Positions 40,376 to 62,803 of a stretch of DNA of 64,000 nt are shown here, one piece after another; the first letter of the stretch is position 1; the number at the start of each line of letters is the position of its first letter. A model generated the notes under the pieces. The model was given only the letters and a program-made list of their open reading frames with translations, did no database searches and was not told where the DNA came from. Position numbers and translations under genes: made by a program. This DNA is from an uncultured Solirubrobacterales bacterium (lineage in GTDB: Bacteria; Actinomycetota; Thermoleophilia; Solirubrobacterales; Solirubrobacteraceae), in assembly GCA_963825025.1 (NCBI GenBank), contig CAWGRJ010000002.1, positions 1,218,497 through 1,282,496 of the forward strand, read 5' to 3'.

Positions 40376-40405
40376 GGCAAATAGCTCATTTGCAGGGCTT
40401 TCGAG

Positions 40406-40478
40406 TGGCGAGAGGCGGACTTGAACCGCCGACACCTCGATTTTCAGTCGAGTGCTCTACCAACTGAGCTATCTCGCC
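40406..40478 (-). tRNA. tRNA-Phe: tRNA-Phe (anticodon GAA), 73 nt, CCA not encoded
   Basis: Hand-folded cloverleaf: acceptor GGCGAGA/TCTCGCC, D-stem GCTC/GAGC, anticodon stem CTCGA/TCGAG with loop CTGAAAA, variable GTGTC, T-stem GGCGG/CCGCC with loop TTCAAGT, discriminator A. Confidence 0.95.
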
Positions 40479-40496
40479 GGGACCACGATCCTAGCG
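40441..40496. repeat. attL-like repeat (5' half of the intact tRNA-Phe plus 18 nt upstream)
   Basis: Shares an exact 21-mer TTTTCAGTCGAGTGCTCTACC (40441-40461) and an exact 17-mer ACTGAGCTATCTCGCCG with 62746-62803. The rest is similar with two 1-nt indels. Confidence 0.75.
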
Positions 40497-40779
40497 CCTC
40501 AACGGCGGTTGAGCCACTGCGGCTCGGGCTCCGGCGGCCCCCAGCCGTGGGCCCTTCCGGACGTGCGATGATCGTGAACTGAGCGTCCTCCCGGACGCCC
40601 AGGAATTGGCACTCCAACCCCCGTGTTCTACTTCCCAGCCGGCGCGACCGGAGTCGAGATCGAAGATCCGCTGCAGAGCGTCCATCGACTCCGACAAAGC
40701 ATCAGTGTTAAGAGCGAGCCCTTCGCCGCACAAGCGTGAAAGTCCGGCGACACGTCACAGATACCTCGATGCATCGGTC

Positions 40780-40818
40780 GCTGAGCCTGTCCTGGCGGTC
40801 CTGGCGGACAGGCTCAGC
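40780..40818 (-). terminator. stem-loop immediately after the SRPBCC gene stop
   Basis: GCTGAGCCTGTCC (40780-40792), 13-nt loop, GGACAGGCTCAGC (40806-40818). Starts 6 nt from the stop codon at 40824-40826. No T-run, which is common in high-GC genomes. Confidence 0.6.
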
Positions 40819-40823
40819 GCGGT

Positions 40824-41273
40824 TCAAGACCTGACCTCGCGCCTTTCTCCGAGCGTCTTGCGCAGGCCGGCGAGTGCGCGAGCGCCGACTCGTTTGAAAG
40901 CGATCCCGAGCAGCGGGTCGGCGAGCCTGAACGGCCCTTTCAGTGCGAGATCTGCGTCGTAGGTGATTCGTGTGCCCTGCTCGGAGGGCTCGAAGGTGAT
41001 CCGGTCCAGCGAGACGACGGTCGAGCTTTCGCCGCGGAATGTGACGGCGTTTGGTGGGTCGTACTCGACGATGCGGTAGATGAGTGGGATCTTTCGGTGA
41101 AGGAAGCTCGCCAGGAGCCGGAACTCGGTCCCTTGCTGGACTGGTGCGTCGCCGAGGCGCTCAGCTTCGATGACGCCCGGGTCCCACTCCTGGGTGCTCG
41201 AGAAGTCGCTCAGGTAGGCGAACATCTCATCGGGCGGACGCGACGTATCGATGCTTGCGTTGTAGTGAGCCAT
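40824..41273 (-). CDS. SRPBCC-superfamily (polyketide cyclase/dehydrase-like) protein
   Basis: 149 aa. FAYLSDFSSTQEWDPGV...GTEFRL...YRIVEYDPPNAVTFRGESSTVVSLDRITFEP is typical of the SRPBCC fold families. Confidence 0.75.
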   Translation of the reverse strand: MAHYNASIDTSRPPDEMFAYLSDFSSTQEWDPGVIEAERLGDAPVQQGTEFRLLASFLHRKIPLIYRIVEYDPPNAVTFRGESSTVVSLDRITFEPSEQGTRITYDADLALKGPFRLADPLLGIAFKRVGARALAGLRKTLGERREVRS

Positions 41274-41283
41274 CGGGTTCTCC

Positions 41284-42255
41284 TTATCGGTCTGAGTCGC
41301 CGGGGGCTGGTGTTTCGTGCCAGCCGCTGAGGCGTTCGCATTCGGTCCATAGCCGCTCGTGGTCTTGGGGTGTCTGTTTGGTCCACGGCACGCGGTGGGT
41401 TGGGCGCTCTCGGCGGTCGTGCCAGAGGCCGCCAGAGCTGTGCGCCGGTCGGGCGGCAGCGCCGAGCCAGACGATCGTGTCGGCGCCTTCTTGGGGCGTG
41501 CGCAGCAGCCGCTTTGTTAGGGCGTGGAAGCGTGGTAGCGAGGACTTTAGGCCCGGGGTATCCGCCCAGCCCGGGTGCATCGCGTGGACAACGACGCCGG
41601 TGCCCCGCAACCGCTCCGCCCACAGTTCGGTCAGGATGACCTGGGCGCGCTTGGTGCGCGCGTACGCGGTGGCTCCGTCGAACTTCTCGTGGGCCATCTG
41701 CAGGTCGTCGGGGTGGATTCGCTGCGTGTACATGCCGCCCGAGGACACGTTTATGATGCGGGCAGGCCGGCTCCGTTCGAGTATGGGGAGGAGCAGGTTG
41801 GTCAGCAGGAACGGCCCGAGAACGTTGGTCGCGAAGGTCAGCTCGATCCCATCGACGGAGAGCGTCCGCTCGCCCGCCAGCGCACCGGCGTTGTTGACGA
41901 GCACGTCCAGGCGCCCCGTCTCCCCGCCGAGACGCTTGGCGAGGAGCCGCACGGATTCCAGGTCGCTGAGGTCGCAGAGGCTGACCTGAACGTCGCTGTT
42001 TCCAGACCGTTCGACGACGCTCGCGCGGGCACGCTCGCCGCGCTGCTCGCTGCGGGCGAGCAGCCGGACGGTGGCGCCGAGGCGCGCGAAGCCCTCGGCG
42101 GCGGCGAGGCCGAGCCCCGAGGTGGCGCCGGTGACGAGCACGACCTTCCCGTCCATCGACTGCAGGTCGCTTGGGTTCCACATGCTCCTGCGGATGCGAT
42201 AGCCGACGCGCGTATAGCCCGCAATGACGGTACGGTCGAGGATCGTGTCGAGCAT
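41284..42255 (-). CDS. short-chain dehydrogenase/reductase (SDR)
   Basis: GKVVLVTGATSGLGLAAAEGFARLGATV (TGxxxGxG). NNAG. Catalytic YARTK (YxxxK). 10 nt upstream of the SRPBCC gene. Confidence 0.85.
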   Translation of the reverse strand: MLDTILDRTVIAGYTRVGYRIRRSMWNPSDLQSMDGKVVLVTGATSGLGLAAAEGFARLGATVRLLARSEQRGERARASVVERSGNSDVQVSLCDLSDLESVRLLAKRLGGETGRLDVLVNNAGALAGERTLSVDGIELTFATNVLGPFLLTNLLLPILERSRPARIINVSSGGMYTQRIHPDDLQMAHEKFDGATAYARTKRAQVILTELWAERLRGTGVVVHAMHPGWADTPGLKSSLPRFHALTKRLLRTPQEGADTIVWLGAAARPAHSSGGLWHDRRERPTHRVPWTKQTPQDHERLWTECERLSGWHETPAPGDSDR

Positions 42256-42316
42256 CCTATGTGCAGAATAGTGCTATGTAGATGACTTTGGAAACGTTTG
42301 ATGTACTGGAACACGC

Positions 42317-42448
42317 ATGAGGATCGCTCGTATCACCGCGCGCTACCCGGCGGCGACGCTGCGCGTGCTCGCGCTCATCTACCGTCATGCGCTTGCGCTG
42401 AAGCTCAAAGGCGTGCCGCTACACGCCCCTCCCGGGGAGCCGGCGTGA
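42317..42448 (+). pseudogene. 3' remnant of a DUF1365-like gene
   Basis: MRIARITARYPAATLRVLALIYRHALALKLKGVPLHAPPGEPA resembles the extreme C-terminus of DUF1365 proteins, which usually precede cfa. The frame opens only at 42302. Its TGA overlaps GTG 42445 (GTGA). Confidence 0.45.
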
Positions 42449-43683
42449 CGGTGTCCCAGCGCGTCGCGCGAGGCATCGCGCTTGGCGTGCTGGCGCGTTT
42501 GCGCTCTGGCCGGCTGACTGTCGTGGAGGGCGAGCGAGCACTGGTGCTGGGGCACGGCGGCCCGCGGGCGACGGTGCAGGTTCGCTCGCCTCGCCTGTGG
42601 CCGAGATTGTTGCACGGCAGCCGCGGGATGGCCGAGGCATACGCGCAGGGCTTCTGGGAGTCCCCGGATCTGACGGCCGTGGTGCGCGTGGCGGCGCGCA
42701 ACGTGAGGAGCCTTGATGAGTGGCGTCGCCGGCTCGCGCCGGCACGGGTCCCGCTGCAGGCCGCGCGCGGTATCCGTGCACGCAACACCCACTCGCGCAG
42801 CCGCCGCGGCATTGCGGCCCACTACGATCTCGGGAACGAGCTGTTCGCGTTGATGCTCGACGAGACGATGATGTACTCCTCGGCGTACTTCCCGCACCGG
42901 GGGATGACGCTCGCCCAGGCATCGAAAGCGAAGCTCGAGCTGGTGTGTGACAAACTCGATCTGCAAGCCGGCGACCATGTCCTTGAGATCGGCACGGGAT
43001 GGGGCGGGTTCGCCGTCCACGCCGCGAAAACAAGGGGCTGCCAGGTCACGACCACCACGATCTCGCACGAGCAGTACGAGCACGCCCGCAAGTGGGTGCA
43101 GGCCGCCGGGGTCGCCGATCGAGTCACTGTGCTGTGCGAGGACTACCGCGACCTACGCGGACGCCACGAAAAGCTCGTCTGCATCGAGATGATCGAGGCC
43201 GTCGGGTATCGCGACTTCGACACGTTCTTCGAGCGCTGCTCGAACCTGCTGGCCGCTCACGGGAGGATGCTGCTGCAGGCGATAACCATCGACGATCGAG
43301 CCTACGAGGTCGAGAAGGCCTCGCGGAGCTTCATCCGCACCCACATCTTCCCGGGCGGCTGCCTGCCCTCGCTCGCCGTGATCGCGCGCTGCGTCGCTCG
43401 GCGCACCGACATGCGAACCATCGAAGTCAGGGATCTGACGCCGCACTATGCCGAGACGCTGCGGCGCTGGCGCGCCAACTTCGAGGGGGCGACCCCGCGC
43501 CTGGAGGATCTCGGCTACGACGAGCGCTTCCGGCGGCTGTGGCGGATGTACCTCGCCTACTGCGAGGCCGGTTTCGCCGAGCGGCGGATCGGCGTCATCC
43601 AAATGACACTGGCAAAGCCAGGGTGGCGCAAGTACGCCGGCCACACGAGTGCGTACGAGTCGCAACGGGCGCTGGCCTTCTGA
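42445..43683 (+). CDS. cfa: cyclopropane-fatty-acyl-phospholipid synthase family SAM methyltransferase
   Basis: AHYDLGNELFALMLDETMMYSSAYF and VLEIGTGWGGFAVHAA match the Cfa/mycolic-acid MTase signatures. GGGGAG precedes GTG 42445. The upstream part of the track ORF was rejected. Confidence 0.85.
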   Translation: MTVSQRVARGIALGVLARLRSGRLTVVEGERALVLGHGGPRATVQVRSPRLWPRLLHGSRGMAEAYAQGFWESPDLTAVVRVAARNVRSLDEWRRRLAPARVPLQAARGIRARNTHSRSRRGIAAHYDLGNELFALMLDETMMYSSAYFPHRGMTLAQASKAKLELVCDKLDLQAGDHVLEIGTGWGGFAVHAAKTRGCQVTTTTISHEQYEHARKWVQAAGVADRVTVLCEDYRDLRGRHEKLVCIEMIEAVGYRDFDTFFERCSNLLAAHGRMLLQAITIDDRAYEVEKASRSFIRTHIFPGGCLPSLAVIARCVARRTDMRTIEVRDLTPHYAETLRRWRANFEGATPRLEDLGYDERFRRLWRMYLAYCEAGFAERRIGVIQMTLAKPGWRKYAGHTSAYESQRALAF

Positions 43684-43685
43684 AC

Positions 43686-44603
43686 ATGGGCCGCGCGCTT
43701 GTCACCGGAGCCTCCGGCTACATCGGCAGCCGACTGGTGCGCGAGCTTCACGCGCGAGGCGTTCCGGTTGGGTGCGTAGCGCGCGACCCGAGCCGGGTCA
43801 GCTTCGATCCGGCCGTCACGGTACACCGCGCCGACATGCTCGATCCAAGCTCCCTGAGCGCGATCGGCGAGGGCTACACGACGGCCTATTATCTCGTCCA
43901 CTCGATGGGTCGGGGCGGCGACTCCGACTACGAGCAGCGCGACGCCACAGCCGCCTCCAACTTCGCTCGCTTCGCGATCGCCACGGGCATCGAGCGGATC
44001 GTGTACCTCGGCGGCCTCGGCGACCGCCCCGCATCCCAGCACCTGCGCTCGCGGCTGCACGTCGGAGAAATCCTGCGCGATCAGGGACCACCGCTGAGCT
44101 GGTTTCGCGCCGGCATGGTGGTGGGAGCCGGATCGGAGAGCTACCGAACGCTACGCTCGCTCGTCGAGCGCCTACCAGTGATGCTCGCCCCCTCGTGGCT
44201 GGCCACACCCACCCAAGCGATCGGCATCGGCGACGTTCTGCGCTACCTCATCGAGGCTCCTCGGATCCCGCAGACGCGCTCCCGGGAGATCCAGATCGGA
44301 TCGGCCGAGATACTCACATACGGCGAGATGCTCGACCAAATGGCCGACGCGCTGGGACTGCACCGCCGCCCACGCATCCCCGTACCACTGCTGACACCAT
44401 GGCTCTCCTCGCACTGGATCGGGCTCATCACACCCGTCGACGCAGGCGTCGCAAGACCACTGATCGAGGGGCTCTCCACCGACACGACCATCACCGACCC
44501 ATCCGGCATGGAACTGTTCGACATCCAACCCAGATCCTTCAAACAGGCCCTGCGCGAAGCAATCATTGAGGAGAACCAAGCCAGTCGAAGCCAGTCGGTG
44601 TGA
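43686..44603 (+). CDS. NAD(P)-binding epimerase/dehydratase (NmrA/atypical SDR-like)
   Basis: MGRALVTGASGYIGSRLVRELHARG (GxxGxxG Rossmann). ATG 43686 lies 2 nt after the cfa stop. Confidence 0.8.
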   Translation: MGRALVTGASGYIGSRLVRELHARGVPVGCVARDPSRVSFDPAVTVHRADMLDPSSLSAIGEGYTTAYYLVHSMGRGGDSDYEQRDATAASNFARFAIATGIERIVYLGGLGDRPASQHLRSRLHVGEILRDQGPPLSWFRAGMVVGAGSESYRTLRSLVERLPVMLAPSWLATPTQAIGIGDVLRYLIEAPRIPQTRSREIQIGSAEILTYGEMLDQMADALGLHRRPRIPVPLLTPWLSSHWIGLITPVDAGVARPLIEGLSTDTTITDPSGMELFDIQPRSFKQALREAIIEENQASRSQSV

Positions 44604-44961
44604 ACCGACGGCCGCCAATCGCGTGGTCCACTTGGAGCGCGACCAGTTCGTAGCGGCAACCTCCCGGCCCATACCGCTAACCGCACTCCTCAGACACGCC
44701 CACGAGGTTATGCGAGCACCACGACGGCACCTGCGCACTGCTCGCCGCGGGCGTGGCGTCCGTGGAGCGAGCTCTCACGGCGCACTACACGCCCGCCTGA
44801 TGTTCAGTGTCCGGCGCCAGTTCGGTGGCCTTGACGGGGAGCATCAGCGCGGAGATGAGCAGGTAGCCGCGCAGCGTGAGCATTCCTACGCGCCGGGTGC
44901 GCGACCAGTACGGTCGCGCGTTGACGGGCTGGACGTCAGGTCGTTTAGAGTGCCGCCCGGC

Positions 44962-45183
44962 ATGACCGACGAGGAACTTGACGAGCTGATACTCGGTCGA
45001 CTGAGGAACCGGCAGGAGGCCGCTCACGCGCGCCTCAGCGCCGCGGCGACTCAGAGTCCAGCCGACCTGGCTAGCTCGTTCAACGAGCCCGAGAGCCTAG
45101 TAGAGGCGCGTATTCTCGTGCTCGCGAGCGAAGACAGGATCAAGGAGTCTGACGCGGCGCCGGGCCGCTGGATGATCGCCTGA
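44962..45183 (+). CDS. possible small winged-helix-like protein (73 aa)
   Basis: MTDEELDELILGRLRNRQEAAHARL...ESLVEARILVLASEDRIKESDAAPGRWMIA. No clear Shine-Dalgarno. A competing minus-strand ORF lies at 44785-45027. Confidence 0.35.
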   Translation: MTDEELDELILGRLRNRQEAAHARLSAAATQSPADLASSFNEPESLVEARILVLASEDRIKESDAAPGRWMIA

Positions 45184-45864
45184 ATGCCGGCCCGGCCGAC
45201 GTGATCCCGGCCCGCCGCAGCTCGCGGGCCGCAAAGTTAGTGTTCCGCTGGGATCGCGGTTCACATTCACTTGTATGGACCCCACCGACCCCGAGCACGA
45301 CGCGCCGGACGCGCCGTCCCAGCTCACGGTCACCTTCGATGACGTGCAGGGCCCCTACCGGCGCCGCCTCCTCCTGGGCGCCGCCGCGGTCGCGCTGACC
45401 CTCGTCGTGTCCGGCGCGGCTTGGCGTCTGAGCACTCTCCCCAGTTCTCGTTCGACCCGCCAGGCGCACCACTCCGCTGGCCACGGCCGACATAACGCGC
45501 GCCGCCCTCGGCGGGTCGCGCCGGCCCGCCGAGCGTCTGGACCGCCCGCCGCCCGCCCGCGACGCCTCACGCAAGCTCGGTCTCCCAACAGACGCCGCGC
45601 AGTTGCAACGAGCGCGATCCCGCCCAATCCGGGTCCTTCGCGTCTCAAAATTTACTCGTCGGTCGGACCGGCGCGTCCACTTTCCCGGCCCGCTGTCGGT
45701 CAAGGTCCAAGACAGGGACAGTTCGACTATCTCGGCAAGTAAGCCAAAGGCCCACTAACCGGGTCAACGGCACGCGAGGCTCTTCTGACGATGGTGTGGG
45801 GTCAACTAAAACGCCCATCGTTGGAGGTGCGCGCCGCTGCGCTCACGGGAGCCAGTGGAGGCAA

Positions 45865-46200
45865 ATGATGAGCCCAAATATGTCAGCTCCGTTCCTGGAC
45901 TTTGTGGCCCGCCGGCTACAGGCCGTGGCAGAGCCCAATCGCATACGCATCCTGAAGATGCTCGAGGGCGGGGAAGCGACCGTTCAAGACCTCACGGACG
46001 AGCTCGCGACGACCCATCAGAACGTGTCGCGGCATCTCGCTGTGCTCTACCAATCGGGCATGGTGAGCCGCCGCAAGGACGGCAGAACCGTGTGGTACAC
46101 GCTCGCTGACTTCAGTGCCCTGCGCTTGGTCGAGCAGGCGGCACAGAGCGCCAGCGGCTATGTTGAGGAGCTGGCGACGATCGCCGGCCTCGACGTTTAG
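45865..46200 (+). CDS. ArsR/SmtB-family transcriptional regulator
   Basis: TGGAGG (45856-45861) before ATG 45865. LQAVAEPNRIRILKMLEGGEATVQDLTDELATTHQNVSRHLAVLYQSGMVSRRKDGRTVWYTL. Confidence 0.85.
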   Translation: MMSPNMSAPFLDFVARRLQAVAEPNRIRILKMLEGGEATVQDLTDELATTHQNVSRHLAVLYQSGMVSRRKDGRTVWYTLADFSALRLVEQAAQSASGYVEELATIAGLDV

Positions 46201-46370: not shown

Positions 46371-46395
46371 ACAGCCGCTCCTTACCTTCGGCCCT

Positions 46396-46647
46396 ATGAC
46401 TAGTTCTCGTAGGACCCACAAAGGTGAGAGCCAGGACCGCTTCGCCCGGCCACAGACGGACGGCGTGAAGCGCCTGGCGCGTATCGCGGCTCGTGCGTTG
46501 TTGTGGGGATGCGTGCTGCTGCTGCTAATTCGCGGCGCGCTCTCGATGCTGAACACGGAATCCCGCGTGCCCACCACCACAAGCGGTGTGACGGTTACTG
46601 CGACGCAGCCCGCCAGCACCGGATCAACGAGTGCGCAAAGGCGGTGA
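46396..46647 (+). CDS. small single-pass membrane protein, first gene of the transfer operon
   Basis: 83 aa. TM RALLWGCVLLLLIRGALSML. The stop overlaps the next start (GTGA at 46644-46647). Confidence 0.55.
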   Translation: MTSSRRTHKGESQDRFARPQTDGVKRLARIAARALLWGCVLLLLIRGALSMLNTESRVPTTTSGVTVTATQPASTGSTSAQRR

Positions 46648-46964
46648 TTGCAGTGTTTTCACAGAAACGACGTCTCGGGCTTCTGGCCCTTCTGTTGGCG
46701 ATCTGTGCGTTGATGATGTTCCCGGTCGCGGCATTCGCGTCCGGCAACAACGTCGGGCAGAACGTCGCGAACCTGCTGAAAGGGTACGCGACGGAGCTGT
46801 ACGGCGGGATCGTGGGCGTCGTAAGCCTGATGTTTCTCGTCAATCGCCGCTACACGGAGCTGGCGGTTTTCCTGTTCGCGGCGATCGTGGTCGCGTGGAT
46901 GGTGTTCGCCTCGGCGGACATTGCCACCGCTGCGGAAGCCATCGGCAAACAGATCTTCGGTTAA
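46644..46964 (+). CDS. pilin-like (TrbC/VirB2-like topology) small membrane protein
   Basis: Signal-like LGLLALLLAICALMMFPVAAFA, then two hydrophobic helices (LYGGIVGVVSLMFLV and LAVFLFAAIVVAWMVFA). Confidence 0.55.
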   Translation: MIAVFSQKRRLGLLALLLAICALMMFPVAAFASGNNVGQNVANLLKGYATELYGGIVGVVSLMFLVNRRYTELAVFLFAAIVVAWMVFASADIATAAEAIGKQIFG

Positions 46965-46980
46965 GCGGAGCTGCTTTCAG

Positions 46981-47685
46981 ATGAGTGACTCCACGCATCC
47001 GATCCGCTCCTACCAGCGGATATTCAAGCCCGACCGGCGGGTCTACGCGATCGACGGGCGGCGGCTGCCTGTGCCGGGCGGCGTGCCGCTTGAGTGGCTC
47101 GGCTGGGCGTTCTGCTCGCTGGTCGTGGTGCTGGTCGTAAGCCAGCGCTCGATCTTCTTCGCGGTAGTGACCGCGGCGGTCGTGGGGCTGCTCGGTGCAA
47201 GCTCACACGGCTGGCCCGGCGCGGTCCTCGGTGCGCTCGCTGGGTTCGCCGGGACGTTGCTGGCGGGCGTCGTGCTCGACTGGCTCGATTGGCCGCTTCG
47301 GCTGCTGATCGCGCCGGGCATGATCGCGACGCTCGCCGGGCAGGCAGCACCGGACGGACGCCCAGCGCACCGCTATCTCACCTCCTGGGCGGCGCTTCGT
47401 ATGCGCTCGGCTCGCCGCTCGCTCGACTCCGCGATCGGCGCCGAGGACGAAGCCCACGATTGGGCGCCGAAGGTGTGGGTCGCGCCGGACGAGCACTCCC
47501 CGGTGCTTCACCACGGCAAGGTGCGCGGCCCCGCTCGGCTCGTGTTCGCACGCCCGGTGGTCGCGATCCCCGGCCGGCGGCGACTGATCGTCCGCCGCGC
47601 TGCCGGCCATCGCCTGCGCACGGGCGAGCGGCTTGCCGAAGTCATCGAGCTGGACGAGGGCCAGGTCGTGGAGGTCCGGCCATGA
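46981..47685 (+). CDS. TcpE-like conjugal-transfer membrane protein
   Basis: N-terminal RSYQRIFKPDRRVYAIDGRRLPVPGGVPL resembles the TcpE-family signature. Several TM helices follow. Confidence 0.6.
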   Translation: MSDSTHPIRSYQRIFKPDRRVYAIDGRRLPVPGGVPLEWLGWAFCSLVVVLVVSQRSIFFAVVTAAVVGLLGASSHGWPGAVLGALAGFAGTLLAGVVLDWLDWPLRLLIAPGMIATLAGQAAPDGRPAHRYLTSWAALRMRSARRSLDSAIGAEDEAHDWAPKVWVAPDEHSPVLHHGKVRGPARLVFARPVVAIPGRRRLIVRRAAGHRLRTGERLAEVIELDEGQVVEVRP

Positions 47686-53327: not shown

Positions 53328-53851
53328 GCGCCGCCGCAGCGTGGATTCGCCGGCAGCTCGACAGGCCGATCGGCGAGAGCGAGCGGCGCGCAGCGTTCAC
53401 CGCGATCTCGGTCGTGCTGATCGCGGCAGCCCTCCTGCTCGCGATGACCAGCACGGGCGTGCCCGCCAGCCAACAGGCCCGCGCGCCCCACCCGCCGACG
53501 AGCACGGTCGGTCCGGTGAAGGGCGGAGCAGCTCCTGCCGAGGCGCTTCGGACCGCACGAACGTTCCTCGACGGCTACCTCGCGTTCGCCTACGGGCACG
53601 GGCCGGCGAGCGCCGTGAAGGACGCGGCCAGCGGCCTCGCCGCCGCACTTCGGAAACGAGCGCGCCTGGTGCCGCCAGCGCTCCGCAGGCTTCACCCGAG
53701 GCTGGTCGCCCTACGCGCCACCAGCTCGACGGGCGCAGCGATCGTCGTCACCGGGCTTGTCAAGGACAGCGAAGTTGTCGCGTACCCGATCAGGGTCGTG
53801 CTCGCCGAGCACGGCGGCCGATATCTCGTCACCGGATTGGCAGGTGCGTAA
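53324..53851 (+). CDS. membrane-anchored transfer-operon protein (175 aa)
   Basis: ATGA overlap at 53324-53327. TM AAFTAISVVLIAAALLLAMT. No family recognised. Confidence 0.6.
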   Translation: MSAAAAWIRRQLDRPIGESERRAAFTAISVVLIAAALLLAMTSTGVPASQQARAPHPPTSTVGPVKGGAAPAEALRTARTFLDGYLAFAYGHGPASAVKDAASGLAAALRKRARLVPPALRRLHPRLVALRATSSTGAAIVVTGLVKDSEVVAYPIRVVLAEHGGRYLVTGLAGA

Positions 53852-55172: not shown

Positions 55173-55244
55173 GGGTCCGTTTGAGGTTCCGTCTAAGGGG
55201 CCGTTTGAGGTTCCGTCAGAGGGTCCGTCTGCGGTTCCCTGCGC
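55173..55244 (+). repeat. three tandem 24-nt repeats
   Basis: gggtCCGTTTGAGGTTCCGTCtaa / ggggCCGTTTGAGGTTCCGTCaga / gggtCCGTcTGcGGTTCCcTgcgc. They lie in a G+T-rich stretch between the hydrolase and the coupling-protein genes. Confidence 0.85.
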
Positions 55245-55632: not shown

Positions 55633-58440
55633 ATGGTGCAACGGCCCGCGCGTGGCGCGGCGGCGGTCGGGCGGTGCCCGGTGAGCGGGAAGGGATCACA
55701 GGACCCCCGCCCGCTTGTCGCGGTCGTCGCCGGGCTGATCGTGGCCTCGCTGATCGGTGGCGCTCGCGGCTCGCACCTCGCCGCGGTCGAGACCGCTGGA
55801 CGGGTGCTGCCGGTCGTGTTGATCGCCGCCACGGTTCTCGGTTCGGTCGCGTTGGCGTGTCGGGTGGTGGCGACGAGGAGGGCGCTCGCCTCTCGGACTC
55901 GGCTGGTGGTGCTCGCGCCCGATTCGTTCGATCCGTCGCTCGATGCGGTGCTGCGCTGCGCGGCTCAGCTCTCGCGCGTGCGCAGGCTCGTCGGCGGCTG
56001 GCTTGATCCGCGGGCGAGGGCAGTTCGGGTGCTGCTCGATTGCGACGAGCAAGGCCGGATGCGCTACTCGCTGAGCGTGCCCGAGCGGGCGCTGCCGGCG
56101 GTCCGAGCAGCGGTTGGCGTGTTCGATCGCGTGCAGCTTCAGGTCATCGACCCGAACGCCGAGCCGGCAAGCGAGGGGGATCGTCGTGTTGAGGTCGTGC
56201 GGGCTGAGCTTCGTCTCGCTCGCCCGAGCAGCGAACCGCTCGCGCATCTCCCGCTGACACCCGATCCGTTGCAGAGCTTCGCGAGGGTTCTCTCTCGGCT
56301 TGATCCGGCGCACCGCGAGCAGGCGGAAGTCGCTGTCGATCTGTTGCCGACGACGGCAGCGACCCGCAGGCGCCTTCGCCGCCGGCTGCTCAAGGAGGCT
56401 CTGCGTCGCGGGGGCCAATCGAGCGAGCCCAACCGAGGCGGGGGATGGCTCGACTTCGACTCCGGCCGGGTAGGGCGTCGGCGGCCTGCGGAAATGGTCG
56501 AGCAGCGCGCCGAACGTGAGGAGATCGCGGCGAAGCTCGTGCAGGCCGAGCCTCTGTTCCGGCTGCAGGTTCTGATCCGCTGTGCATCCCCGGAGCGCGG
56601 CAGAGCGGTCGCTTGCCTGCAAGGGCTGCTCGGCTGCTTCGACGGGTTCGCTGGCGCTAACTCGCTGCGGGTCGTCGGCGTTCGTTTCTTCGGGCTGGCG
56701 TTCGCCGGATCGGACCTCCCTGGCCGTCGGGGCTGGTTCGATCGCCGGATACGCACGGGGCTGTTTCGCCCCGCTCGTCGTGACTACGTGACCGCGCGGG
56801 AGATGGCCGGTCTTCTGAAGCCGCCGACCGCGAAGTGCGCCGCGCCTGAAGTGCTGCGCCTCGGCCCAGCGGTGTATCCGGCGCCGAGGACGCTCCCGAC
56901 GTTCAAAGGTCAGGCGAACCTCGTGCCGCTCGGGAAGGTGGAGGACGAGACGGGACAGCGCACGATCGGGCTCCGCGTCGAGGACTCGTTCTTCACCTAC
57001 ACCGCTGGACGGAGCCGATGGGGGAAGACCGAGCTTGCGCTCACGCAGTTCCTGCACCTCGTGCGAAGCGGTCACGGCGGGCTGTTCCTCGACCCGCACC
57101 AAGACGCCGTCCAAAGGGTCAAGAGCTGCCTGACCGAGGAAGGGCTCGCCGAGCGCGTCATCGAGCTTGACCTCGTCGGGCCGCGCAGCCGCCAGGGGCA
57201 GCCGGGATGGAACCTCTTTGCCGCCAGGGGCCTCGATCCCGACGCCGCCGAGCGGCGGGTCGAGGCGATCGTGGACAGCTTCGCGTCCGCCTTGCAGTGG
57301 TCCGAGCGCAACAACCGGGCGCTCACCCTGACGACGCAGGCGACCGCCGCGCTGATCGAGCTGGCCGGCGTGCTGCCCGAGGGGCTGCAGCCGACGATCT
57401 TCCAGATACCGTCGATCCTGGGGAACCCCGACTGGCTCGCCGCCGCTTTGCCGCACCTCTCCCCGGCGCGGCGCCAGTTCTTTACCGAGCGGTTCCCGCG
57501 CCTGTCCGAAGAGGCGATAACGCCGGTCACGAACCTGATCGACCGGCTTCGCTCATCGACGCAGCTCGCCGCGCTGCTCGGCTCGCAGACCTCCAGCTAC
57601 GACATCGGCCGCGCAATGAACGAACGGCGGATCGTGCTCGCCTGCCCTGGTGCGGGAGGAGCTAAGGACAAGCTCGTCGCGAACCTGCTCGTCTATGACC
57701 TTCTGCATGGCGCGAAGGGACGCGCGTCGATGGCGCCCGAGCAGCGCCTGCCGTTCTACGTCTTCCTCGATGAGGTCCAGACCTACGACGGCGCGGCTGG
57801 CGGGAACCTCGCAGCTTTGCTTGAGCAGACAGCGAAGTACGGCATCCGCGCCACCTTGCTCAATCAGAACCCGGAGCGGCTGACGAGCGACACGCTGAAC
57901 GCGCTCACGACCAACCGCAGCCACCTGATCACGACGGCGCTCAACGCGCACGCCGCCGCGCTGATCGCGAGGGAGTGGGGAGGCGATCCGCCCGCCGCTG
58001 CGATCACGGGCCTGCCGCGCTGGACGTTCATCGCTCAGGTCACGCACGAGGGCAAGCAGACCCGGCCGTTCATGTTCGAAGGCCACTCAGTCGAGGAGCA
58101 GTTCGCCGACGCCTACAGGCCAGACGCTCTAGTTGACGTCCAGGCAACGATCGACAAGGCATCGGGACGCACCCCCGCCTCGGAGACAGTCGCCGATCTC
58201 GACACGCTGGACGAGCGGATCAAGCAGCACCTCGAAGGACAATCCGGCGGCAGCGGCGGAGGTGCCCGTCTCGATCCCGAGGCGCCGTGGACGGCGCCAG
58301 CGCCGAGCGAGCCTAGTCCGCGGGCCAGCTTGATCGTGCGCGGGCGCGGCGAGCACTCGGCGGCACCTCGTCGGTTTCCGCGTCTGCGGGACGGGCACGC
58401 TGCGCGGCCCGCTTGGATGCCCGCTGGAGCACGGCCATGA
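55633..58440 (+). CDS. type IV coupling protein (VirD4/TraG/TcpA-like)
   Basis: Two N-terminal TM helices (LVAVVAGLIVASLIGG and VLPVVLIAATVLGSVALACRVV). Walker A TAGRSRWGKTELAL. Walker B FYVFLDEVQTY. Start uncertain (ATG 55633 or GTG 55681). Confidence 0.85.
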   Translation: MVQRPARGAAAVGRCPVSGKGSQDPRPLVAVVAGLIVASLIGGARGSHLAAVETAGRVLPVVLIAATVLGSVALACRVVATRRALASRTRLVVLAPDSFDPSLDAVLRCAAQLSRVRRLVGGWLDPRARAVRVLLDCDEQGRMRYSLSVPERALPAVRAAVGVFDRVQLQVIDPNAEPASEGDRRVEVVRAELRLARPSSEPLAHLPLTPDPLQSFARVLSRLDPAHREQAEVAVDLLPTTAATRRRLRRRLLKEALRRGGQSSEPNRGGGWLDFDSGRVGRRRPAEMVEQRAEREEIAAKLVQAEPLFRLQVLIRCASPERGRAVACLQGLLGCFDGFAGANSLRVVGVRFFGLAFAGSDLPGRRGWFDRRIRTGLFRPARRDYVTAREMAGLLKPPTAKCAAPEVLRLGPAVYPAPRTLPTFKGQANLVPLGKVEDETGQRTIGLRVEDSFFTYTAGRSRWGKTELALTQFLHLVRSGHGGLFLDPHQDAVQRVKSCLTEEGLAERVIELDLVGPRSRQGQPGWNLFAARGLDPDAAERRVEAIVDSFASALQWSERNNRALTLTTQATAALIELAGVLPEGLQPTIFQIPSILGNPDWLAAALPHLSPARRQFFTERFPRLSEEAITPVTNLIDRLRSSTQLAALLGSQTSSYDIGRAMNERRIVLACPGAGGAKDKLVANLLVYDLLHGAKGRASMAPEQRLPFYVFLDEVQTYDGAAGGNLAALLEQTAKYGIRATLLNQNPERLTSDTLNALTTNRSHLITTALNAHAAALIAREWGGDPPAAAITGLPRWTFIAQVTHEGKQTRPFMFEGHSVEEQFADAYRPDALVDVQATIDKASGRTPASETVADLDTLDERIKQHLEGQSGGSGGGARLDPEAPWTAPAPSEPSPRASLIVRGRGEHSAAPRRFPRLRDGHAARPAWMPAGARP

Positions 58441-59351
58441 GCGGGCCTCGCGCGTTGCCGCCGGTCGCCGGGTCGATGCTCGCGGGCATCTATGAGCACC
58501 GGCTGCTGAGCACAACCCAGCTTCATGCGCTCTACACCCCGGCCGCGCAGGCAAGGTGGGCACGGCAAGTGCTGGCGCTGCTTGAGCGGCGCGGCTTCGT
58601 AGATCGCATTCGCAGCCCCCGGCGGCTATCGCTGTGGTTCCTCACCGACACCGGAGCGGACGCCGTCGAGGCCGGTGGTGCTCCTGTCGAGTTCCGCCGC
58701 CGAGTCACCAGCCGCGAGCAGGCCGAAGGGCCGCTGAAGAAGCACACGATCGCCGTCAATCAGGTCGGTGTCGAGTTCGTCCGGGCAGCGCGACAGCGAG
58801 GCGACGAGTGCGGCCCGGACTCTTGGCGCAACGAGGTCGCGCACCCCATCAGCCATGCACGCGGACGCAGGCCCGCCGAGCTGGTCATCGCCGACGCCCT
58901 TCTCACCTACCTTGAGACCTCAAGCGACGGAGCGCTCGCGCTGCACCAGCGCTTCATCGAGCTTGACCGCGGCACCCGAACCACCGAGCAGCTCGCCGGA
59001 AAGATCACCCGGTATGCGCGGCTGCGCCACTACGCTCCACCGGCCTCGGGCGAGAACACGCCAGAGCCCCTGTGGCGGAGCTACTACCGCGCCTGGCCGC
59101 ACCTCCTGATCGTTCTCGCCGACCAATCGCGCGAGACGATGCGCCAGCGGGTGCAGCGCACCCTCGCCTTGCAGGCGTCGGACCCCGCCGGCCGCGTCGG
59201 CCAGGTCCCCGTGTGGTTCGTCGCGCTCGATGACCTCGCGGCGCACGGCCCGTTCGCGCCGATCTTCCTCAGCAACCAACAACCCGAGCAGCGCGTCGAC
59301 TGGCTCGGCCAACCACGACCCCAGGAGCACCAGAACGATGGCCTGCACTAG
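58437..59351 (+). CDS. replication-relaxation (Replic_Relax) family protein, candidate relaxase
   Basis: ATG 58437 overlaps the coupling-protein TGA (ATGA). MLAGIYEHRLLSTTQLHALYTPAAQARWARQVLALLERRGFVDRIR matches the N-terminal wHTH signature of the family. Confidence 0.7.
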   Translation: MSGPRALPPVAGSMLAGIYEHRLLSTTQLHALYTPAAQARWARQVLALLERRGFVDRIRSPRRLSLWFLTDTGADAVEAGGAPVEFRRRVTSREQAEGPLKKHTIAVNQVGVEFVRAARQRGDECGPDSWRNEVAHPISHARGRRPAELVIADALLTYLETSSDGALALHQRFIELDRGTRTTEQLAGKITRYARLRHYAPPASGENTPEPLWRSYYRAWPHLLIVLADQSRETMRQRVQRTLALQASDPAGRVGQVPVWFVALDDLAAHGPFAPIFLSNQQPEQRVDWLGQPRPQEHQNDGLH

Positions 59352-59507: not shown

Positions 59508-60632
59508 ATGACCCGCCGCCGACCCTCATGCATCCCACAATCAACATGGAAAGTCACCCACGCCGACTGCTTCGGAGTACTCCAGAGCCTCGACGCCAAC
59601 ACGGTTGACGCGATCATCACCGACCCGCCCTACGGCATCGGCGTCAACGGCATGGAGTGGGATCGCCCGGCAAGGCTCGACCCGGCAGCACCAGCCGGCA
59701 AACCACGGCGGCGCCCCCCGACCGAGGACCCCCTCGACCGCTTCCAACAGTTCTCGCGCGAGTGGAGCCGCGCCTGCCTGCACGGCCTGAAGCCCGGCGG
59801 GCACCTCGCCGCGTTCGCCGCGCCGAGAACCGCTCACCGGCTGACGTGCGGGCTCGAAGAAGCAGGCTTCGAAATCCGCGACGTGCTCATGTGGCTCCAG
59901 GGCCAGGGCTATCCCGCCACGCGCGTTCTGCCCGACGGGCAGGGCACCGGCCTGAAGCCCGCTTGGGAGCCGATCATCCTCGCGCGCAAGCCGCTCGACG
60001 GGACGCTCGATCAGACCCTCGCCGAGCACGGGACGGGAGCCATGAAAATCGACGCCTGCCGAATCGAGCTGGCGCAAGAGGACGCCGCCAGGGAAGGGCG
60101 GGCGCACGGCCGGCTGATCACCGCGAGCCCGCAAGGCCGCTGGCCCGCCAACCTCCTGCTCTCACACGGCGATTCATGCACCGAGGAGGCGTGCGAAGCG
60201 GACTGCCCGATCGAGCTGCTCGGCGATCGGCACCGCTTCTTCTACGCCGCGAAGGCATCGCGCCGCGAGCGCGACGCCGGCTGCGAGAACCTGCCGCGCA
60301 AGGTCGTGCAGACCTTCAAGATCGGCGCCCACAACGAGAAGATGTGCGACGAGAACCCGGTCGCGAACATCCATCCGACCGTCAAGCCGATCGACCTGAT
60401 GCGCTGGCTCGTCAGGCTGCTCACGCCGCAGGGCGGCCTCGTGCTCGACCCATTCACCGGCAGCGGCTCGACCGGAGCTGCCGCCGTGCTCGAGGGGGCG
60501 CGCTTCCACGGCATCGAGCGAGAAGCCGAGTACCTGCCTATCGCGCGTGCCCGGATCAAGCACTGGTCAGACTCTCGGCGGCGCGGGTGCGGTTCGGCGA
60601 CCGCTCGGGTGAGACAGAAGGCCAAGGCATGA
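59508..60632 (+). CDS. orphan DNA methyltransferase (beta-class N6A/N4C)
   Basis: Motif IV VDAIITDPPYGIG lies before motif I LVLDPFTGSGSTGAAAVLEGARFHGIERE. GGGGGA Shine-Dalgarno before ATG 59508. No restriction partner nearby. Confidence 0.85.
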   Translation: MTRRRPSCIPQSTWKVTHADCFGVLQSLDANTVDAIITDPPYGIGVNGMEWDRPARLDPAAPAGKPRRRPPTEDPLDRFQQFSREWSRACLHGLKPGGHLAAFAAPRTAHRLTCGLEEAGFEIRDVLMWLQGQGYPATRVLPDGQGTGLKPAWEPIILARKPLDGTLDQTLAEHGTGAMKIDACRIELAQEDAAREGRAHGRLITASPQGRWPANLLLSHGDSCTEEACEADCPIELLGDRHRFFYAAKASRRERDAGCENLPRKVVQTFKIGAHNEKMCDENPVANIHPTVKPIDLMRWLVRLLTPQGGLVLDPFTGSGSTGAAAVLEGARFHGIEREAEYLPIARARIKHWSDSRRRGCGSATARVRQKAKA

Positions 60633-61054
60633 CCCTCGACCCCGACGACATCGAGTCCATCGCGACTCGCGTGGTCGAACTGCTGCAGGACGAGGCGACC
60701 GGCGCGGCGAGGTACGTGGACGCTGCCCTGGTCGCGCAGAAGCTCGGCGTCGACCGCGATTGGGTCTACGCGCACGCGCGGGAGTTGGGCGGCGTGCGCC
60801 TGGGAGGGCCTCACGGGCGGCTGCGCTTCGACCTCCAAAAGATCCGCCGCCAGCTCGACTGCCCCGACGAGGGGCGGCTGAGGCCCGGCGAGCGTCGGCG
60901 CGCACGGCCGCGAAAACACCCGCCAAGACGGCTCGGAAACGTTGATCTTCTGCCCTACACAGAGGTACGATCCACCGGCCAAATAGGTGGCCGGGCGGCG
61001 CGCGAACGCCCCCGGCCCGACAACGGGAGATGCCCCGATGTACCCATACCGTAG
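60629..61054 (+). CDS. excisionase-family HTH protein (Xis-like)
   Basis: ATG 60629 overlaps the MTase TGA (ATGA). YVDAALVAQKLGVDRDWVYAHARELGGVRLGGPHGRLRFDL is the excisionase/MerR-type winged-helix pattern. Basic tail. Confidence 0.6.
   Translation: MTLDPDDIESIATRVVELLQDEATGAARYVDAALVAQKLGVDRDWVYAHARELGGVRLGGPHGRLRFDLQKIRRQLDCPDEGRLRPGERRRARPRKHPPRRLGNVDLLPYTEVRSTGQIGGRAARERPRPDNGRCPDVPIP
60908..60927 (+). repeat. 20-nt exact direct repeat, copy 1 (CCGCGAAAACACCCGCCAAG)
   Basis: Identical 20-mer at 62628-62647. The two copies are read in different frames in the two genes, so conservation is at the DNA level. Confidence 0.9.
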
Positions 61055-61078
61055 AACCTCAACGCGGGAGCGTGCCTG

Positions 61079-62773
61079 ATGGCACGCCCCGCCACCGGAA
61101 GAGTCGAAGTCGAGACGCACGCTGACGGAACGCTCAAGTTCCGCCTGCGGTTCTCCGCCTGCGGCGAACGCCAAAGCCTGATGCTGCACGAGGCGCGCGA
61201 CTGCGCGTGCGGCTGCACCGGCGGCTGGACCGAGAACAACGCTCGGCGTGAGCTACAGAACATCCTCGCTCGCGTCCAGGCAGGAATATGGGAGCGACCG
61301 AAGCCGGCGCCAAAGGTCGAAAAGGCGTTCAAGGGTATGCCGAGCTTCCACGAGTACGCCTCCTATTGGCTGAAGGCAAAGCTCGAAGGCGTCATCGGCA
61401 AGAAGCCGATATCCGAGAACACGCACGCCGGTTACGAGATCTCGCTGAGGCTGCACCTGCTGCCTTTCTTCGGCCGCTACGCCCTCGATGAAATCGATAA
61501 GGAACTCTGCGAAGCGTTCAAGAAGCACCTGATCAAAGAGGCGCACGAGCTGAGGGACGCACTCGCTGCTGGCGCGGATCTTCGTGACATCAACAATCGC
61601 AAGCTCCGCCCGCTCGGCCCGGCGTCGATCCGAGGTCAACTCACCCTGCTTGGCCAGATACTTGACGAGGCCGTAGAGGACGAGTGGATCCCGTTCAATG
61701 CGGCCCGCAGCAAGCGGCTCAAGGTTCACGTCCCCAAGCCAAAGCGCACGTTCCTGGAGATGGACGAGCTCGCTTGCATCGAAGACGCGGCAGCCGAGCA
61801 AGACCCCTCCCTTGAGCGCTTCGCCCTCGCCGCTCGCGAAGCGAGGCCCGGATCGACGGCCGAGGCAGTCGCGATCCGCCTCTCTGACGGCAAGCGCCTA
61901 AAGCTGATCGCGGCCGAACTCGGAGTCGCGCCAGGCACAGTCCACTTCCACGTCCGCAAACTCGATGCCGTGGGTCTCGGTGTCTATGTCGGGCGCAAGG
62001 CGATCGTCCGCACGCTCGGGCGCGCTGGCGTCCGAAACGGCGAGCTGTGCAGCATCCAGATCGGCCACGCGCGTCTGCACGACGTCAACAACGCCCGCCT
62101 TGATATCCCCGACTCCAAGACAGAAACCGGCATCCGCGTGCTAGAGCTGAGCCCGGAGCTAGCCGAAGCACTCATCGAGCACATCGGCCGGCTCGTCCGA
62201 GCCGGCAACGACACGAGCCCAACGGCTCCTCTCTTCCAGAACGAACGCGGCGGGAAGATGACCCGCAAGGCCGTCGGCAAAATCGTCCGCGAAGCCACGG
62301 TGCTCGCCACCGAGAGAATGCAGGAGATGGGGATGCCCCCGCTGCCGCACATAACGCCGCACAGCTTCCGGCGCACCTACATCTCGATCCTGCTGCTCGC
62401 CAGCGAATTCGACCTCGAATGGGTGAAGAAACAGGTCGGCCACGCCGACTCGAAGATGACGCTCGAGGTTTACAACCAGCTACAGCAGCGCGTCAAGCGG
62501 GAGCACGGCGCATCGTTCGACCGGCTCATCCGCGAGGCCCGTGAGCGGCTACACGCCAGCCAGGAGCCGCCACCAGGCGACAGCACGCCCGACACCGGCG
62601 GGGTTTGTGCCGAGGTTTGTGTCGAGCCCGCGAAAACACCCGCCAAGCCCCGTCCTCCGCGCCGTCCTGGGCGTGGCAAAAACCTAGCGATTAGCAGGAC
62701 AAACGGCGGGCTGCGGCGACGGGACTCGGCCGCTGGGCATAAATGTTTTCAGTCGAGTGCTCTACCGGACTGA
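61079..62773 (+). CDS. int: tyrosine recombinase / integrase
   Basis: GVRNGELCSIQ (Arg), HSFRRTYIS (HxxR), VGHADSKMTLEVYNQL (His and catalytic Tyr465). A 99-aa low-complexity tail follows. The last codons lie inside the attR repeat. Confidence 0.9.
   Translation: MARPATGRVEVETHADGTLKFRLRFSACGERQSLMLHEARDCACGCTGGWTENNARRELQNILARVQAGIWERPKPAPKVEKAFKGMPSFHEYASYWLKAKLEGVIGKKPISENTHAGYEISLRLHLLPFFGRYALDEIDKELCEAFKKHLIKEAHELRDALAAGADLRDINNRKLRPLGPASIRGQLTLLGQILDEAVEDEWIPFNAARSKRLKVHVPKPKRTFLEMDELACIEDAAAEQDPSLERFALAAREARPGSTAEAVAIRLSDGKRLKLIAAELGVAPGTVHFHVRKLDAVGLGVYVGRKAIVRTLGRAGVRNGELCSIQIGHARLHDVNNARLDIPDSKTETGIRVLELSPELAEALIEHIGRLVRAGNDTSPTAPLFQNERGGKMTRKAVGKIVREATVLATERMQEMGMPPLPHITPHSFRRTYISILLLASEFDLEWVKKQVGHADSKMTLEVYNQLQQRVKREHGASFDRLIREARERLHASQEPPPGDSTPDTGGVCAEVCVEPAKTPAKPRPPRRPGRGKNLAISRTNGGLRRRDSAAGHKCFQSSALPD
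62628..62647 (+). repeat. 20-nt exact direct repeat, copy 2 (CCGCGAAAACACCCGCCAAG)
   Basis: See copy 1. Lies 99 nt before the attR core. Confidence 0.9.
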
Positions 62774-62803
62774 GCTATCTCGCCGCGACCCCCGATCCTA
62801 GCG
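62746..62803. repeat. attR-like repeat: orphan 5' half of a tRNA-Phe gene (62746-62784) plus 19 nt of its upstream flank
   Basis: TTTTCAGTCGAGTGCTCTACCggACTGAGCTATCTCGCCGcgacccccgatcctagcg. It has no 3' half. D-loop variant AGTCCGGTA versus AGTTGGTA in the intact gene. Confidence 0.75.

Follow-up and report, generated by a model that had tools for sequence, protein, structure and literature searches.

Introduction

The Islander collection holds 3919 islands, 3760 of them with a 3' fragment of the target tRNA gene (tDNA) and 159 with a 5' fragment (PMC4383910). The reversed configuration is rare (~4%) but already described, and reversed integration into tRNA and tmRNA genes is credited to Zhao and Williams (2002), as cited in PMC6563490. 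Here we describe a locus of the reversed kind in a 64-kb stretch of DNA from an uncultured soil Solirubrobacterales bacterium. This stretch is called the window, and all coordinates refer to it (they end at 64000). Its segment ~40441-62745 (22.3 kb) is very probably an integrative and conjugative element (ICE) that was put into the tRNA-Phe gene by a tyrosine integrase and that restored the 5' half of this gene together with its putative core promoter.

Other described systems resemble this locus in part. Integrases that use the anticodon loop of tRNA genes correspond to what Williams (2002) termed sublocation 'A' (summary in PMC4383910). The actinomycete ICEs (AICEs), such as pSAM2 and SLP1, transfer double-stranded DNA by an FtsK-like TraB protein, replicate by Rep proteins and are reported to be confined to Actinomycetales (Ghinet et al., 2011; PMC3218068). 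Archaeal elements that use the 5'-distal part of tRNA genes (Krupovic and Bamford, 2008; Gaudin, 2014; Cossu, 2017; CalSub-E1) are cited in PMC6563490.

The window was compared with ~130 loci from Solirubrobacterales; L001 and similar labels denote these relatives' loci. A pattern scan for the tRNA-Phe 5' half in species-representative genomes gave 120 loci, all from Solirubrobacterales or other Thermoleophilia and nearly all from soil metagenome-assembled genomes. L128-L131 are four JGI metagenome contigs. The sequencing runs that contain window sequence, examined as Logan contigs, are all soil metagenomes, and in the contigs of one of them, X1, the right end of the element is present with zero differences. 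Metatranscriptomes contain 4-7% of the words of the int/att region.

The tRNA-Phe gene and the two repeats

ARAGORN found only one tRNA gene in the window, a tRNA-Phe gene at the left end of the element, and the 5' half of this gene recurs at the right end. The two ends are composed as follows.

40405-40478, minus strand: intact tRNA-Phe(GAA), a chimera (ARAGORN; Rfam 75.5 bits, gathering score 29)
40405-40440: resident 3' half of the chimeric tRNA-Phe
40441-40478: element-brought 5' half of the chimeric tRNA-Phe, D-loop AGTTGGTA
40441-40497: attL repeat copy, tRNA nucleotide 1 through the anticodon loop and ~19 nt of upstream sequence
62746-62804: attR repeat copy, displaced 5' half (62746-62784, D-loop AGTCCGGTA) plus upstream flank

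On the plus strand the 21-mer TTTTCAGTCGAGTGCTCTACC, which covers the anticodon loop and the anticodon stem and reaches into the D-stem, occurs exactly twice, at 40441 and 62746; two matches to it were obtained in 0 of 100 shuffles. In the pairwise alignment it is followed by a D-loop difference (AA in the left copy, GGA in the right copy), an exact 17-mer (ACTGAGCTATCTCGCCG) and a similar flank. The similarity of the flanks ends at GATCCTAGCG (40497 and 62804, respectively), beyond which the copies diverge. At its other end the block of identity starts exactly at TTTTCAG, which represents loop positions 32-38, and none is seen to the left of it. With 18.6 bits the right copy stays below the Rfam gathering score and hence is not a tRNA. 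A second copy of the 3' half was sought in the window with a 42-mer and a 22-mer at up to 3 mismatches, and none was found. Classical islands restore the 3' part, whereas here the shared block starts in the anticodon loop and extends past nucleotide 1. The displaced 5' fragment lies upstream of the regenerated tDNA in direct orientation, and the integrase lies between the two, as in reversed islands.

Since both differences between the copies come only after the first 21 nt and the identity starts at the loop, the exchange can be placed inside TTTTCAGTCGAGTGCTCTACC, and we infer a crossover within 40441-40461. By analogy with anticodon-loop tRNA integrases it most likely took place in the 7-nt anticodon loop.

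The two copies carry different alleles. The right copy, with the GGA D-loop, has the flank GCGACCCCC / GCGACCCCCGATCCTAGCGTTTCC, and L066 and L135 show GGA together with a near-identical flank in their intact genes. The left copy, with the AA D-loop and the flank GGGACCAC / GGGACCACGATCCTAGCGCCTCA, matches the end of an element in L050, which comes from another species. L050 has the AA D-loop and the flank GGGCCCACGATCCTAGCGCCTCAG, followed by 61 nt similar to 40479-40539 and then directly by sequence similar to 44956-45136. Because the left flank recurs at the end of a related element, it is a property of the element and not of the chromosome.

The first-pass annotation of this DNA had described a duplication of the 5' half and its upstream flank around ~22 kb, with an identity that begins at the anticodon loop. 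Both statements were borne out, the first by the alignment, the uniqueness of the 21-mer and the Rfam scores (the distance being 22.3 kb), the second by the start of the alignment at TTTTCAG. It had also read the gene as a chimera with an element-supplied 5' half and the integrase distal to the intact tRNA, for which the alleles and the relatives' loci provide support. Finally, it had considered that the left repeat might be native; the left flank, which recurs in L050 with a related element end and without the 40.5-44.9 kb cargo, identifies this repeat as the end of the element.

Related loci show an insertion at tRNA-Phe

In L001 and L003, whose integrases are 95% and 74% identical to that of the window, the genes for the coupling protein, the Replic_Relax protein, the methylase, Xis and the integrase are followed by an orphan 5' half without a tRNA gene. 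The same junction, in which int is followed after ~150 nt by an orphan 5' half, is present in L001, L003, L109, L066, L128, L129, L130/131 and L133, and the native flanks of these loci differ. The comparison thus demonstrates the recurrence of the element type in several hosts.

The DNA beyond these orphans was identified by its synteny. Genes for an M23 peptidase, an epimerase and an HD-domain protein lie upstream of tRNA-Phe, 40-2500 nt from the gene, and are conserved across the order. They adjoin an intact tRNA-Phe gene in several dozen of ~120 loci and were found beside all seven testable int-adjacent orphans (L001, L003, L041, L066, L109, L128 and L133). In L003, L128, L109 and L001 the DNA to the right of the orphan is collinear with what precedes the intact tRNA-Phe gene of many genomes (82-91% identity between the L003 flank and L014, 81% between L128 and L054). 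The corresponding sequence of the window, 62746-63893, matches L092 at 90.9% and L135 at 90.5% identity, and in both loci it is joined to a complete tRNA-Phe gene without a conjugative element; L066 likewise joins an intact tRNA to the right flank. Because relatives join that flank to an intact tRNA-Phe, the orphan lies where the gene originally stood; the 3' half was pushed 22 kb away, where it adjoins a new 5' half. The comparison of relatives' tRNA-Phe loci that had been proposed as a check therefore came out in favour of an insertion: an intact gene stands at the flank of the orphan without the element (L092, L135), and the upstream synteny is found at the orphans.

The proteins of the element in L131 are 94-98% identical to those of the window, and the DNA beyond its orphan is unrelated. 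A near-identical element beside a different flank implies that it recently entered different chromosomes. At the empty site L014, the left flank has no homologue among the fetched loci. Leftward of TcpE, L124, L126, L132 and the contig end L127 contain >9 kb of different cargo.

A putative promoter carried by the element

Both repeat copies include a -10-like hexamer.

40488-40493, minus strand: element-borne hexamer TAGGAT (ATCCTA on the plus strand), at an offset of 9 from the tRNA 5' end
62795-62800: the displaced copy's own TAGGAT (ATCCTA on the plus strand), at an offset of 10

A TANNNT hexamer is present within 40 nt upstream of the gene in 111 of the 117 intact Solirubrobacterales tRNA-Phe loci. 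Most of these hexamers are TAGCAT or TAGGAT, and their overwhelmingly favoured position is 9-11 nt from the mature 5' end. Most of the 18 nt of upstream flank counted as repeat in the first-pass annotation consists of this hexamer, and upstream of it the element end shares nothing with native flanks. A scan for consensus promoters and terminators returned nothing useful at either repeat. The earlier suggestion that the element supplies its own tRNA promoter region gains support from TAGGAT at the native distance, from which we infer that the element brings the putative core promoter of the regenerated tRNA.

The integrase and its arm

The integrase gene forms the right end of the element and is preceded by a small gene.

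60629-61054, plus strand: xis-like small open reading frame (ORF) directly upstream of int, candidate recombination directionality factor
61079-62773, plus strand: tyrosine integrase, 564 aa in the integrated state (Pfam Phage_integrase PF00589, E 2e-14; SAM-like N-terminal domains)
62602-62626, plus strand: two tandem 12-nt direct repeats GGTTTGTGYCGA, candidate arm-type integrase sites
62711-62745, minus strand: probable decayed relic of a tRNA-Phe 3' half (collinear alignment)

There are 662 homologues of the integrase. The xis-like ORF lies upstream of int in window-type loci (L001, L003, L109, L128, L130, L131) and also in those of L030, L057 and L058, where int adjoins an intact tRNA-Phe gene (intact type, see below), with 39-95% identity. 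Exact copies of GGTTTGTGYCGA occur only at 62602-62626, and every aligned relative has tandem repeats there whose sequence co-varies between lineages; a search of the 520 nt next to the left end found no copies of these arm-type repeats. The order of tandem 12-nt repeats, an AAAA...AGCAGG motif and 47-48 nt to the anticodon loop is collinear in window-type and intact-type loci.

The int ORF extends ~95 codons beyond the catalytic domain. This tail spans the arm repeats, the relic and the crossover, and its stop codon falls within the orphan tRNA half; in the excised form the ORF would measure 602 aa instead of 564 aa. The tail is of low complexity, the lengths of the homologues range from 555 to 634 aa, and it probably represents read-through in stop-poor GC-rich DNA.

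The integrase gene is flanked by an exact 20-nt direct repeat, CCGCGAAAACACCCGCCAAG, at 60908-60927 (3' end of the xis-like ORF) and 62628-62647 (in the arm, after the tandem repeats). A deletion of int between these repeats, suggested by a loose end at 62628 in run X1, disappeared at 95% likeness and was most likely due to a wrongly placed contig.

A probable relic of the 3' half next to the integrase

Integrases that are ~50% identical to that of the window (L057, L030, L058) have the same orientation and adjoin the 3' end of an intact tRNA-Phe gene with the native upstream synteny. In these intact-type loci the last 35 nt before the loop are the tRNA 3' half, and the sequence 62711-62745 of the window occupies exactly this position. 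Compared in register with the common 3' half it matches at 17-19 of 35 positions (P ~0.0008-0.007). Window-type loci as a group reach 17-20 of 35 (P ~1e-4 to 8e-3), with a mean of 10 for random 35-mers. A stronger relic is present in L041 (23-24 of 35), and the unrelated control orphan of L117 gave 10-11 of 35. In L135 the repeat finder itself paired the relic with the real 3' half, at 72%. The ungapped test in register was judged appropriate since the crossover fixes the register. Because the similarity in the window itself is modest, the probable relic is recognised by the series of loci and not by the window alone.

Weak-relic, strong-relic and intact types formed separate clades in a rough neighbour-joining tree, which does not settle their deep order. 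Taken together, the attP site of this module probably once held the 3' half or the whole of tRNA-Phe, and the 3' half then decayed in the lineage of the window, in which a 5' half plus promoter on the opposite side took over the repair. The restored side has probably switched in this lineage, and the intact type is the likely starting point of that switch.

An AbiE mini-island and a probable tandem array

One further feature lies directly outside the ICE.

62805-63897, minus strand: flank plus AbiEii toxin gene (62998-63897; Pfam AbiEii)

This segment matches the left end of a complete island, L135 2114-3256, at 90.5% identity. The order in L135 is an intact tRNA-Phe (GGA), AbiEii, AbiEi, an integrase 56% identical to that of the window, a relic 3' half and an orphan 5' half (AA); a remnant of a further AbiE copy follows, and then the M23 peptidase, the epimerase and the HD-domain protein. 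The island shows the same reversed design and measures 3.53 kb, and both of its ends are contained in one locus (region 2114-6138). L092 has a decayed version of it with a 155-nt integrase remnant. AbiEii and AbiEi constitute a type IV toxin-antitoxin system of abortive infection.

By this homology, an older AbiE island of the same reversed type probably begins with the displaced GGA half of the window, and the AbiEii gene is probably the first gene of that island. If so, the ICE of the window is the newest member of a tandem array. The first-pass annotation had stated that the displaced chromosomal 5' half is left next to int. A displaced half is indeed found there; in view of L135 and L092 it is probably not virgin chromosomal sequence, rather the head of the AbiE island.

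Genes between the repeats

The two repeats enclose variable cargo on the left and a conserved backbone for transfer and integration on the right, of which the xis-like gene and int have been listed above.

40540-44955: cargo module, variable
40824-41273, minus strand: SRPBCC/polyketide-cyclase-like protein (Pfam)
41284-42255, minus strand: short-chain dehydrogenase (Pfam)
42298-43683, plus strand: cyclopropane-fatty-acid-synthase-like methyltransferase (Pfam)
~43.7-44.6 kb, plus strand: NAD-binding NmrA-like protein (Pfam)
45796-46200, plus strand: ArsR/MarR-type helix-turn-helix (HTH) regulator, first conserved backbone gene (Pfam)
46396-46964, plus strand: two small conserved ORFs of 83 aa (46396-46647) and ~101 aa (ending at 46964)
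46921-47685, plus strand: TcpE-family conjugal transfer membrane protein (PF12648, E 6e-10)
47682-48911 and 48911-50113, plus strand: VirB4/TcpF-type ATPase as two ORFs, the N-terminal part and the AAA_10 part
50110-52560, plus strand: CD3337/EF1877-family TrbL/VirB6-like polytopic membrane protein (NCBIfam NF046089, E 1.6e-35; Pfam TrbL weak)
52557-53327 and 53324-53851, plus strand: two conserved ORFs of 256 aa and 175 aa
53851-55014, plus strand: CHAP/NlpC-P60 cell-wall hydrolase (Pfam CHAP, E 3.4e-11)
55173-55244: six tandem 12-nt units (GGKTCCGTYTRA-like; GGGTCCGTTTGA / GGTTCCGTCTAA and similar; repeat finder)
55633-58440, plus strand: 935-aa type IV coupling-protein-like protein (motif inspection)
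58437-59351, plus strand: Replic_Relax protein, candidate relaxase (PF13814, E 8e-27)
59508-60632, plus strand: N6/N4 DNA methyltransferase (PF01555, E 1.3e-30)

The stretch 40540-44955 is assigned to the cargo inside the ICE because L050 joins the left flank to 44956-45136 without it. Conservation of the backbone at the DNA level begins at ~45660 (blastn to L126 and L127). ORFs of the same sizes as the two small ones precede TcpE in L124, L126, L127 and L132. The TcpE protein has >860 homologues that bear the NCBI name TcpE, and since these homologues measure 234 aa, its likely start is at 46981. No family match was obtained for the 256-aa and 175-aa ORFs in Pfam or NCBIfam; their position is conserved in relatives.

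The ATPase was recognised by NCBIfam TcpF on residues 224-399 and by Pfam AAA_10 (E 4.6e-59). It is split into 409 and 400 aa at a TGATG junction, and the split is kept in L124, L127 and L132. Because of this conservation in related elements it is no recent break, and it looks like a conserved two-chain arrangement rather than a pseudogene.

The 935-aa protein has two transmembrane helices near its N-terminus, with Walker A at residue 459 (GRSRWGKT) and Walker B at residue 710 (VFLDE), and it is 68-98% identical in related elements. The 12-nt array sits in the 600-nt gap before its gene, in a region 83.5% conserved in L003, and may be a candidate oriT or a set of protein-binding iterons. TraB/FtsK-like translocase or Rep domains were found in no ORF of 40.5-62.8 kb. 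We take the conjugation genes to be akin to those of Tn916, ICEBs1 and the Tcp system of pCW3, of the MPF_FA class.

The backbone ORFs are all open. The chained start/stop overlaps reported by the first-pass annotation proved real in eight of nine cases (ATGA or TGATG/TAATG); the GTGA at 46644 is out of frame with the stop at 46984. A recombinase inside, limits formed by att repeats, absence from the site in relatives, and VirB4 together with further mating-pair-formation genes give the segment the anatomy of an ICE.

Neighbouring DNA and other relatives

Directly downstream of the tRNA 3' end there is an IS66-family transposase gene (DDE_Tnp_IS66 and DUF6444; 38812-40320, plus strand), which ends near 40385. 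The homologous context in L050, an RNase H-like gene and then the tRNA, has no IS66 transposase, and the X1 contigs diverge just before 40386. In L023 the same position beside tRNA-Phe is taken by a transposase fragment with 49% identity. Further out on the tRNA 3' side, 31210-37885 encodes an AAA_16 ATPase, HTH proteins, DUF4262 and an RNase H-like protein (RVT_3). This region looks accessory and contains no integrase by tblastn. A classical island on this side of the tRNA would bring a second integrase, and it was rejected because tblastn found none in the window.

In L134 (3134-5700) and L066 (5811-7852) an intact tRNA-Phe lies upstream of (xis-)int and has the opposite orientation to the orphan 5' half that follows int. 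Such a layout is unlike simple integration and may reflect an integrase-mediated inversion or a rearrangement between copies. An AT-richer flank, GCCTGCTAATC...TTTT, is found on the 5' end of the intact tRNA-Phe in L005 (7380-7452), near homologues of the coupling protein and of Replic_Relax. A flank of the GCCTGCTAATC type is also present on an orphan 5' half in L117 (569, reverse strand), which has no homologous integrase. L005 and L117 suggest a second, unrelated element family that uses the 5' side of tRNA-Phe.

A model of integration and its alternatives

According to the model that we favour, attP would carry, on the side of the crossover away from int, the part of the tRNA that extends from nucleotide 1 through the anticodon loop, together with the core promoter. 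The left product of integration would be a functional chimeric gene composed of the resident 3' half and the 5' half, D-arm allele and -10 element of the ICE. The right product would be a dead copy beside int, in which the relic 3' half is followed by the displaced 5' half with its own promoter, so that the integrase would come to lie distal to the intact gene. The int-proximal arm, with its tandem repeats and decayed 3' half, would point to a whole tRNA-Phe or a classical 3'-half attP as the ancestor of attP and to a switch in the half that the lineage restores. For transfer the element would use a Gram-positive-type type IV secretion system (T4SS; TcpE, split TcpF/VirB4, the VirB6-like protein, CHAP), the coupling-protein-like ATPase and Replic_Relax. 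It is presumably still mobile.

Several results weigh against this model. The two-ended picture rests on the window, L050 and the mini-island of L135. The left tRNA flank is unconserved among the relatives, none of which shows both native flanks of this site, and no tRNA gene was found within 10 kb upstream of TcpE in L124, L126 and L132. A generic sigma-70 promoter scan returned no promoter at either copy. The relic of the window matches the window's own 3' half at 13 of 35 positions (P 0.15), and a gapped end-free (semi-global) test of this relic against the 3' half was not significant. No family match, and a weak HTH hint only, was obtained for the xis-like ORF, and the 935-aa coupling-protein-like protein has no sequence match in Pfam, NCBIfam or PDB. 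Finally, no attP or attB joint was found in metagenome contigs, which cannot show rare excision products.

The last point leads to the alternative that survives best, although we regard it as unlikely: the structure is as described, excision and transfer have been lost, and the repeats mark an old event. Besides the missing attP and attB joints, the VirB4/TcpF ATPase in two ORFs, the long unconserved tail of int over the att site and the decayed integrases at this locus in L064, L095, L066 and L092 agree with such a fixed remnant. However, the backbone ORFs are open with eight translationally coupled junctions intact, related elements keep the 409 + 400 aa split, the element of L131 lies beside a different host flank at 94-98% identity, and excision products too rare for contigs would escape notice.

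A composite origin is less probable still. Here the ICE would be the backbone (~45.7-62.7 kb), and an independent cargo insertion or second island (40.5-45.6 kb) would own the left repeat. The start of backbone conservation at ~45660, the direct passage from the left flank to 44956-45136 in L050, which lacks 40540-44955, and the tandem arrays at this locus (L135 and the right flank of the window) would fit. Yet the same passage in L050 ties the left flank to sequence that lies inside the 22.3 kb beside the backbone, by which the repeat belongs to the ICE and the 4.4 kb is cargo within it, and there is neither a second integrase nor a further tRNA fragment between the repeats.

We give little credence to the idea that attP held a complete tRNA-Phe whose 3' half decayed after integration here, which would make the reversal an accident of this copy. 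The relic does hold the position of a 3' half, but the relics of the window, L001 and L130/131 are nearly identical and those of L003, L128, L109, L133 and L066 are related to them, while hosts and flanks differ. Because the decayed sequence is common to elements in different hosts, the decay predates the integrations and travels with attP. A local duplication or pseudogene of tRNA-Phe, with the element having entered otherwise, recalls the tandem tRNA-Phe genes of L105 but is barely conceivable, given an identity that begins exactly at the anticodon loop, an orphan that, in at least eight loci, always follows a homologous integrase and its conserved arm repeats at ~150 nt, and relatives with a single intact gene at the same flank.

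Integration of a reversed ICE by its own integrase remains our reading, and it can be extended tentatively. Possibly a single module (xis, int, arm repeats) arose from an attP with the whole tRNA-Phe, and its lineages differ in which half is functional. Reversed ICEs and AbiE mini-islands would then stack on the 5' side, with a new D-arm allele and a new promoter at each arrival for the tRNA-Phe gene, which seems to be the only one of the cell, and the orphaned promoter might fire antisense over the arm sites and the 3' end of int. If true, the expression of an essential tRNA would be under element-borne control, and antisense transcription from the orphaned promoter could act as a brake on integrase expression or on the occupancy of arm sites in the integrated state.

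Comparison with known systems

The locus offers a cleanly delimited, recurrent and apparently recently mobile case of the rare reversed integration into tRNA genes. To our knowledge, T4SS-type ICEs are hardly described in this abundant uncultured soil lineage. Mobile elements can, according to this case, rewrite the 5' half and probably the promoter of an essential tRNA gene, and island finders that expect int beside the intact tRNA, or 3' fragments only, would misplace or miss such elements. With intact-type, strong-relic and weak-relic versions of the module, one locus provides a natural series for the switching of sides.

The archaeal elements that use the 5'-distal part of a tRNA gene belong to another domain of life, have integrases of other families and lack a conjugation module. 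With the AICEs the element shares the actinobacterial host, the tyrosine integrase and the tRNA target. It differs by its T4SS and by the restoration of the 5' side, and because it has no TraB/FtsK-type translocase it is not an AICE.

The conjugation genes can be compared with those of Tn916, ICEBs1 and the Tcp system of pCW3. Common to them are TcpE, TcpF/VirB4 with AAA_10, CD3337/EF1877, CHAP/NlpC-P60 and a membrane-anchored Walker ATPase in the position of the coupling protein. Peculiar to the element are the ATPase in two ORFs, Replic_Relax as candidate relaxase, a coupling protein without family match and a host from a deep-branching actinobacterial order.

The classical-type loci L057, L030 and L058 have the same target gene, the same orientation of int, the same layout of the arm and an xis-like gene upstream of int. 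In those loci the 3' half is functional and int abuts the intact gene, whereas in the window this half is decayed and its substitute lies at the other end. Finally, the reversed-orientation islands resemble the element most closely: a displaced 5' part lies upstream of the regenerated gene in direct orientation with a tyrosine integrase between, which leaves it to the element to provide the 5' part and the promoter. What sets the present case apart from them is the T4SS-type ICE family, the 3'-half relic by int, the sister integrases of the intact type and the tandem accretion with AbiE islands. The trace of the probable switch, namely the relic next to int and the intact-type sister integrases, and the probable repeated re-heading of the tRNA gene in tandem are the new points that this analysis adds to the reversed configuration.

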